64,000 nt of DNA, taken from the IMG/VR virus record IMGVR_UViG_3300032893_000001, positions 24,183-88,182 of that record; one strand, written 5' to 3'. This stretch comes from a virus. The position numbers were made by a program, and so were the translations under genes. How positions within the stretch are numbered: the first letter of the stretch is position 1; each line of letters begins with the position of its first letter. Positions 23,928-37,165 of the stretch are shown here, one piece after another. The notes beneath the pieces were generated by a model. That model made no database searches. It had not been told where the DNA came from and saw nothing but the letters and a program-made list of their open reading frames with translations.

Positions 23928-24253
23928 TGAACTACAGCAAATCGATCACCGACCTCGACGGCAACGAGATCAAACGAGAAGGAGGAGCCATCAAGAACGA
24001 CCGCGTACGTGACCTCCTCGGCGACGAGAAGGCGCAGGTCGAAGTTCTCGTTGGCACGACACTGGGCTTCGGTGAAGCGAAGGTACACGTCGCAGTCCGC
24101 CTGACGTGCAACCAGGACGAGGCCACCGTCTTCGAAGCGGGAGAGATTGCCTACCGCACGGCGAAAGAGATCGCTCGAAGCAGCCTCGACGATCTCGCGC
24201 CGCCTCTTCCGAACATCGCTGCATCACCTCCGCCGGCAGGCACCCCCCGATGA
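23924..24253 (+). CDS. Hypothetical protein
   Basis: ATGA coupling on both sides. Confidence 0.7.
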   Translation: MMNYSKSITDLDGNEIKREGGAIKNDRVRDLLGDEKAQVEVLVGTTLGFGEAKVHVAVRLTCNQDEATVFEAGEIAYRTAKEIARSSLDDLAPPLPNIAASPPPAGTPR

Positions 24254-33380: not shown

Positions 33381-34508
33381 ATGCAACAGATGGCGATGTT
33401 CGAAGCAGACGCATCCGCGTTCACGCAGGGTCCGGTTCCTGCCATTCCGTCCAAGGGGCGCGCGCGCCTCGAGGAGATCATCACACGTGGGCGCAGCCGC
33501 GCCGCAAAGGTGATGGAGTACGTCGAAACTCTCCAGCCCGTCGACAAGCTGGTGAAGGTCAACAAGCTCGAGTTCGAGCTCGCGACCAAGAAGACCGGGG
33601 ACAGGCTGCAAATGCTCCTGCCGGACGACACGGCGGTCACGCTTCACCGCAATGCTCTCGGACAGGCCGCCGAGCGCGCCAAGATTCCGATGGTGTTCGT
33701 GAACCACCTGATGGAGAAGGGGAGCTGGGGGATCGAGCTCCTCGCATCAAACTTCAACGAGCTCCTCGGGCACGTCGACGAGAAGGCGCTCGTGCGAATC
33801 GTCAACGACGACGCACGGGGCTTCCTCTCGGATCGGTACCGCCGCCTCGACTCACGCCCGCTGGTCGACGCGTTCGCGCGCTCCTGCGCGAAGGTCGGCG
33901 CGTTGCCCTACGAGGGGTATGTCACCGACACGAAGGTCAGCATCCAGGCACTCATCCCGAAGGTCTACGAGCCGGTGGCCGGGGAGATCATGGCGTACGG
34001 CGCGACCTTCGAGAACAGCGACTTCGGCAACGGGGCGCTGAACGTCAGCTTCTTCCTGCTCCGCCTCGTTTGCCTCAACGGCATGATCGGCGAGACCAGC
34101 ATGCGTCAGGTCCATCTCGGCAAGCGCCTCACCGAGGACGTCGACTGGTCCGTGCGCACGCAGAAGCTCGACATGAAGACCGTTCTCTCCGGCGTCGAGG
34201 ACATGGTCATCGGACAGCTCGCCGAATCCCGCATCGAAGAGATGCAAGCGCACGTTCGCAAAGCGCACGAGAGGAAGCTCGACGACGCGAGTCGCAAGAG
34301 CGTCCTCGACATGCTCAAGCGCTTCATGAACAAGGGAGAGCTCGACAAAGCGATCTCCAAGTTCAACGAGCCGGACGTCGAGCTGCTGCCGCCGGGGAAC
34401 ACCATGTGGCGCATGTCGAACGCCATCTCATGGCTCGCGGGTGAGACGGAAGACGAAGAGCGCAAGCTCGAGCTCCAGCGGTTGGCAGGCAAAGTCCTAC
34501 CGTCGTGA
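33381..34508 (+). CDS. DUF932-like phage/plasmid protein
   Basis: LSDRYRRLD, NSDFG, RLVCLNGMI, terminal TMWRMSNAIS motifs. Confidence 0.7.
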   Translation: MQQMAMFEADASAFTQGPVPAIPSKGRARLEEIITRGRSRAAKVMEYVETLQPVDKLVKVNKLEFELATKKTGDRLQMLLPDDTAVTLHRNALGQAAERAKIPMVFVNHLMEKGSWGIELLASNFNELLGHVDEKALVRIVNDDARGFLSDRYRRLDSRPLVDAFARSCAKVGALPYEGYVTDTKVSIQALIPKVYEPVAGEIMAYGATFENSDFGNGALNVSFFLLRLVCLNGMIGETSMRQVHLGKRLTEDVDWSVRTQKLDMKTVLSGVEDMVIGQLAESRIEEMQAHVRKAHERKLDDASRKSVLDMLKRFMNKGELDKAISKFNEPDVELLPPGNTMWRMSNAISWLAGETEDEERKLELQRLAGKVLPS

Positions 34509-34591
34509 ACGTCCCAGCACTACACGAAGTACTTCACCGCCAGGCCCGCGCAGACGAACGGGCCTGGCGTCAAATCGAACGGAGAATGAAC

Positions 34592-34966
34592 ATGATGATG
34601 AGCAACGATGGAATGGCAGGAGTGACGGTCAAGAAGGACGAGCTCCTCACCGTGCTGAAGAAAAACCGCGACGAGCATCGCAACATCTTCCTCGACGCTC
34701 AGAAGGGCTACCGCGAAGACGCCATCAAGGAGCTCGATCGCATGCTCGCAGAAGCGCGGGATGGCAAAGCGATCCGTCGGCAGATCGTCCTCGTCGAACC
34801 GCAGGACCACACCAAGGACTACGATCGTGTGATCCGCATGCTGGAGATGTGCACCAAAGACGAGATCTTCATCTCCGAGAGCGAGTTCGCGCAGTACGTT
34901 CAAGACGACTGGGGCTGGAAGCAGCAGTTCACGGCGTCGACGTCTGGGTACACGGGCCGACGATGA
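34592..34966 (+). CDS. Hypothetical protein
   Basis: GGAG SD 7 nt before ATG 34592; coupled to the next gene. Confidence 0.7.
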   Translation: MMMSNDGMAGVTVKKDELLTVLKKNRDEHRNIFLDAQKGYREDAIKELDRMLAEARDGKAIRRQIVLVEPQDHTKDYDRVIRMLEMCTKDEIFISESEFAQYVQDDWGWKQQFTASTSGYTGRR

Positions 34967-36102
34967 TCATCGGACTCTGCGGCCAAGCGGGCAGCGGAAA
35001 GGACACGGTCGCGGACTTCTTGGTCCGCGACCATAGCTTCGTGAAGGTCGCGCTTGCGGACCCGCTCAAGCGGATCTGCAAGGACGTCTTCGCCTTCACC
35101 GACGAGCAGCTCTGGGGGCCGAGCGCGGAGAGGAACAAGCCGGACAAGAGGTATCCGCGCTCCGACCGCTTCACGTACCCTACGGCGCCTCCTCGTTCGA
35201 TCTGGTTGCCCATCGACGATGCGCACACTCTCATCGACGAGGATGACCTCGCCGTCGTGCTGGAGCACAAGTGGTGCATCAACCGCAAGGAACAAGGTAA
35301 GCGCACGGCGTACGTACGTCGAACCACCGACTCGCTAAAGCTCCATCAGTTGATCATGGGGGAGGCCCCAGAAGGCATGGTCATCGACCACGTCAACGGA
35401 GACGGGCTCGATAACCGACGCAAGAACCTGCGCTACTGCACGCACGCAGAGAACCATGCGAACGAGGAGAAACGACGAGGCGGGACGTCCGTCTTCAAGG
35501 GGGTCGGCCTCGACACCGATCGGAACAAGTGGAGCGCCAAGCTCACGGCCTTCGGTAAGACGAAGAACCTGGGGCGCTTCGATACCGAAGAGGAGGCTGC
35601 CGTGGCTTACGATACGGAAGCCAGAAAGGTCTTCGGGGACTTCGCCCGATTGAACAGCGAGATGTTCCTCACACCGAGGTACGCCTTGCAGCAACTTGGG
35701 ACGGAGTACGGACGGAACTGCTACCCGAACGTGTGGGTCGACTACGCCTTGCGCGTGGCGCGCATCCTCAAGGACGGGGGCTTCTACTACGACGCGAAGT
35801 CCGGCGTGCGCTTCCTGTCGCAGTTCGAGTCGCAATTGGACTGGGTGAAGCCGAAGACGGACGTCGTCATCTCCGACGTTCGCTTCCTCAACGAGATCGA
35901 CGCCATCCGTGCAGCAGGCGGCATCGTCTGGAAGATCAACCGCCCCGGTGCTGGTCTTCAGGGAGCGTCCGCTCAGCACGCCAGTGAGACTGAACAACTC
36001 CTGATTCCTCCGGAGAAGTTCTACTCCGTGATCGACAACAACGCGACGCTCGATGACCTGCGCAGCCTCGTCGGGCTCGTACTCGAAAGGAGCAGGAGAT
36101 GA
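34963..36102 (+). CDS. Deoxynucleoside monophosphate kinase with in-frame HNH-AP2 endonuclease insertion
   Basis: Kinase motifs GQAGSGKDT, ADPLK, TPRYALQQLGTE, ISDVRFLNE, HASE, IDNN; insert IDHVNGDGLDNRRKNLR (HNH) and LGRFDTEEEAAVAYD (AP2). Confidence 0.9.
   Translation: MIIGLCGQAGSGKDTVADFLVRDHSFVKVALADPLKRICKDVFAFTDEQLWGPSAERNKPDKRYPRSDRFTYPTAPPRSIWLPIDDAHTLIDEDDLAVVLEHKWCINRKEQGKRTAYVRRTTDSLKLHQLIMGEAPEGMVIDHVNGDGLDNRRKNLRYCTHAENHANEEKRRGGTSVFKGVGLDTDRNKWSAKLTAFGKTKNLGRFDTEEEAAVAYDTEARKVFGDFARLNSEMFLTPRYALQQLGTEYGRNCYPNVWVDYALRVARILKDGGFYYDAKSGVRFLSQFESQLDWVKPKTDVVISDVRFLNEIDAIRAAGGIVWKINRPGAGLQGASAQHASETEQLLIPPEKFYSVIDNNATLDDLRSLVGLVLERSRR
35161..35664 (+). mobile_element. HNH-AP2 homing-endonuclease domain inserted in frame in the dNMP kinase
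   Basis: About 168 aa between KRYPR and FLTPRYALQ; HNH plus AP2 motifs; boundaries approximate. Confidence 0.8.
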
Positions 36103-36728
36103 CGCAGGAGCGAACGCCGGTGAACAACGGGGGTGGTCTTCAGATCACCCTCGGCGTGGGCGCACCGCAGTCGAAGCTCGACAAGATCGCGGACACCTTC
36201 GCCACGCAGACCGCAATCGAAGAGGAGCTCGTCAAGATGGGAGTCACGGACCAGCCCAAACCCAACTTCGAGCTCCCCGTCATCACGCGGGAGAACCTGA
36301 CCACGACGAACAGCAAGGAGTACACGGACCTGTACGCCAAGCAGCTTGCGTGGTTCAACTACCTGACGCCCATCTTCGCAAGCGTCGAGGTAGCTCTCCT
36401 CGAGGCGAAGAACACGTTCGATCTCACCGAGGCCGCCATCAAGGACGGTCTCTACGAAGAGAACAAGCTCCTGTCGAAGGCCGAGAAGCTCACCAGCGAC
36501 GAGCTGAAGAACAAGGTTCTCGTTCATCCATCGTACCAAGAAGCACTTCTCCAGGTGCAGCGGATGACCCAATACAAGATGCGCTTGAAAGCGATGCTCG
36601 AGATCGCTGACAGGAACATGACAGTCATCTCACGACAAGTGGAGATCCGCCGGCAAGAGATCGAAGGAGGCGTGCACGAAAACAACATGCCCCGGCGCGG
36701 CCGACGGTTTCAGCCAATCACGAGGTAA
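36099..36728 (+). CDS. Coiled-coil protein, possibly UvsY-like recombination mediator
   Basis: Helical heptads, terminal ISRQVEIRRQE, located in the recombination block. Confidence 0.45.
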   Translation: MTQERTPVNNGGGLQITLGVGAPQSKLDKIADTFATQTAIEEELVKMGVTDQPKPNFELPVITRENLTTTNSKEYTDLYAKQLAWFNYLTPIFASVEVALLEAKNTFDLTEAAIKDGLYEENKLLSKAEKLTSDELKNKVLVHPSYQEALLQVQRMTQYKMRLKAMLEIADRNMTVISRQVEIRRQEIEGGVHENNMPRRGRRFQPITR

Positions 36729-36730
36729 GC

Positions 36731-37165
36731 ATGATCCACATGAGGATTCCGGGGCTGCCCCCATCTGCCAACCACGCGTACTTCAATCGAGCGGGCGGCG
36801 GGCGGTCCCTAACGAAGGAGGGACAGAAGTACAAGAACGAAACGGTCTCGTACATAGCACGCAGCTACCCGCTCATGATCGCCAAGGTCCGACAAAACGA
36901 ACCGTACGTGGTGTACTTCCGTCTGCACTTCGACCGTCTCGAAACGAAGGACTGGCCAAAGAAGACGAAAAACAGGTACAAGACTCTCGACGCCAGCAAC
37001 CGCATCAAGCTGCTGGAGGACTGCGTGAAGGATGCCTGTGGCATCGACGATTCGCAGCACATGATCGTCATCGTCGAGAAGCGACAGGGTCCGCCTTTGA
37101 CCGAGGTGTTCCTCTGGAACACGCAAGAGGAGGTACCACCGATTGGAGAACTACTCGCCCTCTAG
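36731..37165 (+). CDS. rusA: RusA-like Holliday junction resolvase
   Basis: PPSANH, LDASNRIKLLED, IDDSQ motifs. Confidence 0.8.
   Translation: MIHMRIPGLPPSANHAYFNRAGGGRSLTKEGQKYKNETVSYIARSYPLMIAKVRQNEPYVVYFRLHFDRLETKDWPKKTKNRYKTLDASNRIKLLEDCVKDACGIDDSQHMIVIVEKRQGPPLTEVFLWNTQEEVPPIGELLAL

Follow-up and report, generated by a model that had tools for sequence, protein, structure and literature searches.

An HNH-AP2 endonuclease module embedded in frame in a phage dNMP kinase: a probable splicing-free homing element

A 64,000-nt stretch of the IMG/VR virus record IMGVR_UViG_3300032893_000001 (positions 24,183 to 88,182; hereafter the window) carries a gene for a deoxynucleoside monophosphate (dNMP) kinase of the T4 Dnk type, whose coding sequence encloses a complete HNH_3-AP2 endonuclease module (Table 1). 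The source record comprises 184,953 bp and is rated complete. We consider it probable that the module is a splicing-free homing endonuclease, placed in frame in a hypervariable surface loop of the kinase and spreading by homing. The translation of the whole gene is free of stop codons and gives a single protein of 379 aa. The reading frame is open from position 34441, i.e., upstream of the ATG at 34963; this ATG yields the N-terminus MIIG..G.AGSGKDT, the consensus common to 119 homologues, and overlaps the stop codon of the upstream open reading frame (ORF) as ATGA.

The two kinase parts were recognized separately in the profile searches. Pfam DNMK (PF21448, T4 gp1-like) scored 52.2 bits against a cut-off of 27.1 in two separate stretches, the first at residues 2-44, and phrog_139 (dNMP kinase, E 1.9e-42) matched residues 1-66 and 232-379. 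The first half stops at ...KRYPR (residue 66) and the second restarts at (M)FLTPRYALQQLGTE (residue 235). In the AlphaFold2 model of the whole protein, built from a 90-row alignment (mean predicted local distance difference test score, pLDDT, 95.8; predicted template modelling score, pTM, 0.89), the two parts jointly formed the T4 Dnk fold. The chain 1DEK_A was matched over model residues 1-377 with Z 17.4, a root-mean-square deviation (rmsd) of 2.7 Å and 28% identity over 182 aligned residues (Foldseek E 4.5e-7); residues 3-39 of 1DEK aligned with the N-terminal part and residues 171-232 with the C-terminal part. Since both parts restore the kinase fold and the model is confident, the gene represents a domain insertion and not a broken kinase. 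Fold, P-loop and C-terminal motifs are shared with the T4 gene 1 dNMP kinase (1DEK), which, unlike the query, has no endonuclease insert.

The insert of 168 aa (504 nt) has neither a start nor a stop codon of its own. No in-frame ATG was found near the module start, and the TTG at L82 is not preceded by an obvious Shine-Dalgarno sequence, as judged by eye. The Pfam AP2 match at residues 176-218 (22.7 bits, E 1.2e-4) lies below the cut-off of 33.3; the assignment is supported by the plant AP2 structure 7wq5 (E 3e-7 in a phmmer search against the PDB) and by Foldseek matches to 1gcc (rmsd 1.4 over 56 columns) and 7wq5 (rmsd 1.2 over 61 columns), and many homologues exceed the Pfam AP2 threshold. 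The HNH endonuclease family phrog_99 matched residues 130-234, and the HNH endonuclease PHROG families together covered residues 124-234. In the model, the HNH unit of the insert has a beta-beta-alpha arrangement, and the AP2 unit consists of three strands and a helix. Alignments with free-standing HNH-AP2 proteins of 155-170 aa extend over 85-98% of the insert at 40-50% identity; these proteins begin at the W81-L-P-I position and end 0-8 residues past ...ARLN. The N-terminal linker of the embedded copies follows the pattern (Y/F)-x-(Y/F)-P-x-x-P-x-G-x-x-W, which is absent from the starts of most free-standing relatives. An earlier sequence-only reading of the window had described kinase halves separated by about 168 aa, almost entirely HNH plus AP2 and in frame; the measured length and the Pfam, PHROG and fold matches for both the kinase and the nuclease bear this description out.

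No known splicing element accompanies the module. In the Pfam search no Hint or intein family was found at E<=1 in the 379-aa protein, PF14890 was absent from the whole 185-kb genome, and no Rfam intron family appeared at E<=10 on either strand of positions 34400-36600 in a search that covers the described families only. Only 14 residues of the insert (the linker, 67-80) lie outside the endonuclease homology, and therefore there is no room for a Hint domain. The junction residues vary over the 41 aligned copies (S/N/T/D/P/G before the insert and S/A/T/R/Q/K/E/G/D after it), and no conserved Cys, Ser or Thr nucleophile was found across these copies at the first insert residue or the +1 residue. 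The apparent RLN-S junction is the normal end of an AP2 domain and not an intein motif, because the free-standing HNH-AP2 proteins terminate in ...FGEFARLN(F). The sequence-only reading thus held on the uninterrupted frame, on the lack of space for a HINT domain and of a group I intron, and on the ordinary AP2 end. A cryptic splicing element, meaning unrecognized intein-like chemistry or an unknown type of intron with its ORF in frame with both exons, could be invoked on the grounds that the query has Ser at both junctions and Asn last (S67, N231-S232), which looks superficially intein-like, and that in some introns the ORF is joined in frame to the exon before it (PMC7902536). The negative searches, the extent of the endonuclease homology, the unconserved junctions and the codon-level purifying selection over the whole segment in the kinase frame (see below) make this explanation very improbable.

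Among 5.8 billion proteins searched, 40 others showed the kinase-HNH-AP2-kinase architecture, their identity being 37-66%, and a second search added four (about 45 in total). They occur independently in JGI, ENA, NCBI and Logan assemblies, and in all insert-bearing relatives the module lies between PD.RYPR and (F/Y)LTPR.ALQ.LGT..GR. The architecture is real and neither a product of chance nor an assembly artefact, because about 45 independent metagenomic proteins share both the architecture and the site. The window derives from a metagenome-derived virus contig, which might raise the suspicion of a chimeric assembly or of a recent disabling insertion in a kinase pseudogene; with the independent occurrences, the conserved kinase motifs and a ratio of nonsynonymous to synonymous divergence (dN/dS) far below 1 in all three parts, this suspicion is effectively refuted and its probability is negligible.

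Hundreds of relatives lack the insert. Their kinase parts are up to 80% identical to those of the query, and at the corresponding place they have a loop of about 10-70 residues without sequence conservation; the position in a variable loop proposed from the sequence is thereby corroborated by the alignment. With clustering at 50% identity, 887 clusters scored E<1e-30. Among the best 150 clusters, 13 were full-length insert-bearing and 3 were insert-bearing fragments; more than 120 were insert-free, and hence the insert is the minority state and far from being carried by all relatives. Virus Rctr197k and Myxococcus phage Mx1 are the nearest named phages whose kinase lacks the insert, and no megablast match to the 12 kb around the gene was found in GenBank phage records.

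Several insert-free kinases (P0037, P0042, P0044, P0047, P0053, P0057, P0058, P0063, P0066, P0070, P0073, and P0118) have loops of 30-70 residues with a zinc-ribbon-like CxxC...CxxC pattern. As such loops are found in many insert-free kinases, the site appears to be a general hot spot for small domain insertions, beyond the endonuclease. The long kinase relatives P0269, P0339, P0357, and P0390 were considered as carriers of other loop inserts and rejected, their extra length being due to N-terminal extensions. Two divergent insert-bearing kinases on long branches of the kinase tree, P0060 and P0090, have loop inserts of 220 and 204 aa, with 40-50 extra residues between RY.. and the HNH module. 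Four other insert-bearing proteins, P0011 (545 aa), P0015 (492 aa), P0016 (496 aa), and P0023 (500 aa), are 110-170 residues longer than the query; the start of P0011 lies about 78 residues further upstream, and the remaining three are apparently longer at the C-terminus; the extra length may stem from wrongly called starts or from additional fusions.

All parts of the chimeric gene evolve under purifying selection. In the closest pair with available DNA (P0011/P0016), dN/dS was 0.050 for the insert and 0.067 and 0.112 for the kinase flanks. The mean pairwise identity of the 41 inserts is only about 52%, and the core residues of both domains are invariant all the same: D142, H143, N155, N164, and N167 of the HNH motif (N167 lies two residues beyond the Pfam match) and G180, W190, A192, G204, A212, and Y216 of the AP2 domain were present in 41/41 embedded copies. 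On the kinase side, the motifs of the N-terminal part are conserved in both the insert-bearing and the insert-free set. The query keeps the catalytic and substrate-binding residues G12, K13, D33, K36, R57, D61, R63, R239, Q243, G246, R251, W258, D305, R307, E311, R327, H339, S341, and E342, and their retention in insert-bearing alleles amounts to 93-100%. Because of the purifying selection, the invariant HNH and AP2 residues and the retained kinase residues, both activities are probably maintained. The conserved motifs suggest a bifunctional protein, in which the fusion would be an active nuclease and the kinase would still work.

The inserts and their hosts have different histories. Compared with the 70 nearest free-standing HNH-AP2 proteins, the 41 inserts form one clade, with a support of 99 in the Shimodaira–Hasegawa-like approximate likelihood-ratio test (SH-aLRT). 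In the tree of the kinase columns, the insert-bearing proteins are scattered and require 24 parsimony changes, at least 7 of which are forced by strongly supported branches (SH-aLRT >=95); the nearest kinase to the query is the insert-free P0037 (80% identity). A single clade of insert-bearing kinases was rejected by the approximately unbiased (AU) test, run with the six longest rows removed (log-likelihood difference 297.5, p 2.5e-5). The identities of inserts and flanks correlate weakly (Pearson r 0.44) and disagree in both directions: P0019 and P0021 are 89% identical in the flanks and 60% in the inserts, P0005 and P0014 are 52% identical in the flanks and 74% in the inserts, and P0001 and P0017 are 91% identical in the N-terminal flank and 43% in the insert. 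The discordance also holds at synonymous sites, and faster protein evolution of the insert therefore cannot explain it; in P0019/P0021, synonymous divergence (dS) was 0.41 and 0.45 in the flanks and 1.64, roughly 4-fold higher, in the insert. These decoupled histories indicate that the cassette moves horizontally between the kinase genes of related phages.

Footprints of such exchange were visible in the DNA. Over their first 126 nt, the kinase genes of L003 and L005, two syntenic phage contigs, show 96-100% identity; this falls to 45-73% across the insert and about 60-70 nt on each side, and returns to 85-100% beyond. The insert-bearing L006 and the empty L007, compared by gene-level alignment since L007 has an extra upstream gene, share runs of identity of 110 nt in the 5' part and about 184 nt at the 3' end of the gene, and their swapped centre consists of about 40 nt, the insert or the loop, and about 280 nt. 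Both patterns are the trace that would be expected of nuclease-initiated gene conversion with co-conversion tracts.

A further change linked to the insert was found 12-14 codons past it, in the kinase motif LGTEWGR. The EW pair is present in 71/79 insert-free and in 6/41 insert-bearing alleles (Fisher p 1.6e-16), and in 7 phylogenetically independent pairs about 6.8 went in the same direction (median sign-test p 0.016). The insert-bearing alleles read EF, NW, EY, QW or EW-A, the query having EY. The loss of EW may be an immunizing change in the recognition or cleavage site of the nuclease, carried along by co-conversion, or it may be a structural adaptation of the dimer interface suggested by the modelling described below. 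The insert-free P0051, P0074, P0082, P0083, P0104, P0106, P0107, and P0114 have non-EW variants (EF, NW, QW, EY, EG), and several non-EW empty alleles adjoin insert-bearing kinases in the tree. Such alleles may be footprints of insert loss or resistant alleles.

The protein was predicted to form a homodimer with ipSAE 0.74, compared with 0.00 for the best control; the 0.74 mark was reached by 20/30 proteins solved as homomeric pairs and by 1/23 solved as single chains. The contact agreement between the homodimer runs was at least 100% and the partner pLDDT at least 82. T4 Dnk is itself a solved homodimer (1DEK, two chains), and because of this the positive result may reflect the likeness to T4 Dnk. 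The predicted two-fold interface includes the insertion point (residues 64-67 and 236) and the linker residues 72-83; residues 248-250 lie on the predicted two-fold axis, next to the insertion point and the insert linker. A tentative idea, which we regard as rather unlikely, is that the endonuclease is an obligate passenger domain that needs its host protein, the kinase dimer pairing the HNH modules into a double-strand cutter. If true, two HNH modules with one active site each would be brought next to each other in the dimer, and an enzyme that nicks DNA would become one that cuts both strands. The host enzyme would then supply a promoter, a ribosome-binding site, protection from frameshift decay and quaternary structure, and homing endonucleases would have, in addition to introns and inteins, a third means of residing in an essential gene.

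The sequence-only reading had proposed a selfish insertion tolerated in the loop or, alternatively, a kinase domesticated with a DNA-binding module; the first of these proposals gained support from the monophyletic inserts in polyphyletic hosts, the cassette-swap signatures in DNA and the discordant synonymous divergence. The following course of events would account for the data. The HNH_3-AP2 ORF would be transcribed and translated as part of the kinase and not removed; as the loop tolerates inserts, the kinase parts would still assemble into a functional enzyme, to which the nuclease is attached as a side domain. A single endonuclease lineage would have specialized for this loop site, and its cassette would pass horizontally from one kinase allele to another among related phages of large size (about 100-220 kb). 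The spread would most likely proceed by homing: during co-infection the embedded nuclease would cut insert-free alleles in the conserved kinase-coding DNA beside the loop, and recombinational repair would copy the insert together with flanking co-conversion tracts.

Some observations weigh against homing. None of the 41 copies is decayed, and a classical homing cycle predicts some degenerate endonucleases. Near-identical inserts in distant kinases were not found among them; no two inserts are more than 86% identical, which means that a very recent homing event was not caught. The pTM of 0.89 and the position of the linker in the predicted dimer interface suggest a structural integration that would fit a domesticated domain, and the scattered distribution could owe something to ordinary phage recombination and precise losses. 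The alternative is a domesticated bifunctional enzyme, in which the HNH-AP2 module was captured once and kept for phage use, its patchiness arising through ordinary recombination and losses and not through homing. The phage might use it, for instance, for nicking or degrading the DNA of hosts or competitors, for linking DNA breakdown with dNMP salvage, or as a DNA-binding regulator. Domestication would also agree with purifying selection on the insert at least as strong as on the kinase, with the invariant catalytic and DNA-binding residues, with the confident inter-domain geometry, and with the occurrence of the element clade only inside kinases. Among longer proteins, this endonuclease clade was found essentially in dNMP kinases alone, besides long or tandem HNH-AP2 proteins with no other Pfam domain, and the match in the insert is the only HNH_3 match in the 185-kb genome. 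A domesticated function explains less well why the insert is confined to a small minority of clusters and why the nearest relatives of insert-bearing alleles are often empty. The cassette boundaries inside the kinase gene, right beside the insert, the roughly 4-fold higher dS of the insert in otherwise close genomes, and the linked LGTEWGR change, which resembles a target-immunity change, also speak against it. We therefore hold domestication to be unlikely and less favoured than the selfish insertion, even though the two readings are not mutually exclusive.

The kinase gene lies within a DNA-metabolism region, as judged from its neighbours, a DUF932-like protein and a RusA resolvase (Table 1). 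A DUF932 gene is also present directly 3' of the kinase in L003 and L005. These two contigs are otherwise nearly identical, except that L005 (4554-6004, compared with L003:5580-6000) carries, immediately before the kinase, an 83-aa ORF and an additional gene for an AAA-ATPase of 400 aa; this AAA-ATPase indel adjoins the endonuclease-bearing gene. Between the genes for ThyX (Thy1) and dCMP deaminase, both contigs have an ORF of 140 aa that weakly matches LAGLIDADG_1 (L003:12043-12465, L005:12077-12499) and encodes a further putative homing endonuclease of the nucleotide-metabolism cluster. The dCMP deaminase genes upstream of the kinase in L007 (2424-3719) and L006 (2976-4325) encode 431-449 aa, about twice the usual size, and the L007 product gave a weak Intein_splicing match; the dCMP deaminase gene neighbouring the kinase thus probably hosts an intein.

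Table 1. Features of the chimeric kinase gene and its neighbours; positions refer to the window.
Feature	Residues	Position	Strand	Evidence and remarks
Whole chimeric gene, dNMP kinase with embedded HNH-AP2 endonuclease	1-379	34963..36102	+	379 codons + stop
Kinase N-terminal part	1-66	34963..35160	+	P-loop GQAGSGKDT, ADPLKR, end motif PDKRYPR
In-frame insert, complete HNH_3-AP2 module	67-234	35161..35664	+	phrog_99, phrog_4578
Insert N-terminal linker (SDRFTYPTAPPRSI)	67-80	35161..35202	+	conserved among embedded copies
HNH_3 catalytic core	132-165	35356..35457	+	Pfam 42.5 bits vs cut-off 24.8
AP2 DNA-binding domain	176-231	35488..35655	+	three strands + helix, ends FGDFARLN
Kinase C-terminal part	235-379	35665..36099	+	LTPRYALQQLGTEYGR, DVRFLNE, RPG...QHASE; phrog_139 match, P0001:232-379, E 1.7e-24
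LGTEYGR	245-251	35695..35715	+	candidate nuclease target/immunity site or dimer-interface adaptation; insert-free alleles LGTEWGR
DUF932-like protein		33381-34508	+	E 1e-3; two genes upstream of kinase
RusA Holliday-junction resolvase		36731-37165	+	E 8.7e-8; two genes downstream of kinase

The nearest known parallels are provided by the ShiLan element and by the LAGLIDADG fusions to mitochondrial rps3. The ShiLan domain and the Pacc40 gp60 insertion are located in DNA methylases of actinobacteriophages (mycobacteriophages) (Arsenault, Gosselin and Gogarten 2025, PMC11855218). Like the kinase insert, they lie inside a phage enzyme gene with the host frame left open and no detectable intein or intron, show a disjunct distribution suggesting homing, encode an HNH nuclease (with AP2 in Pacc40) and are predicted to loop out. 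Their nuclease has its own GTG start in a frame other than that of the host, and translation in the host frame gives a hairpin without features or a disordered loop, whereas the kinase insert encodes its nuclease in the kinase frame, with no start or stop of its own, as a folded domain of the host protein; the host gene and the phage group differ as well. In the fusions described in PMC7902536 (citing Gibb and Hausner 2005), LAGLIDADG homing-endonuclease ORFs are joined in frame to mitochondrial rps3 of Ophiostomatales. According to that account, the endonuclease is likewise fused to a host protein with no dedicated splicing element, but it belongs to another nuclease family, resides in a eukaryotic organelle, where rps3 itself lies inside a group I intron, and forms a fusion and not a domain insertion in an enzyme loop.

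HNH-AP2 genes are described in PMC10448857 (citing Magnani et al. 2004) as an established homing-endonuclease family of phages, cyanobacteria and protists. The free-standing HNH_3-AP2 endonucleases, including the IPA-HNH genes of ICP1, have the same domain order, size, D-H...N...N motif and AP2 core as the insert; they are encoded by genes of their own, complete with start and stop codons, that lie next to or between host genes, while the kinase-embedded lineage lies in coding sequence and forms its own clade. Inteins with in-frame HNH domains (10.1101/2025.01.02.630785) are also co-translated in frame within phage genes of nucleotide or DNA metabolism, but they have Hint splicing blocks and conserved junction nucleophiles and leave a mature protein, none of which applies to the kinase insert. 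A dNMP kinase with an enclosed HNH-AP2 module did not turn up in full-text searches of the literature.

An intron or intein is usually regarded as a prerequisite for a homing endonuclease to reside within a gene and leave the host protein undamaged. The approximately 45 diverse and strongly selected examples suggest a splicing-free route, in which a permissive loop is occupied and the nuclease stays in the mature enzyme, and make the kinase family a natural, well-populated test case for the ShiLan observations. On this reading, the product would be an unspliced protein of 43 kDa, empty alleles of the LGTEWGR type would be cleaved, and the EF, NW and EY variants would be immune. As a natural large domain insertion tolerated by a small kinase, the fusion is also of interest for protein engineering. 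More broadly, it may serve as a system for studying the permanent incorporation of selfish nuclease domains into cellular proteins, a route by which the plant AP2 factors have been proposed to have arisen.

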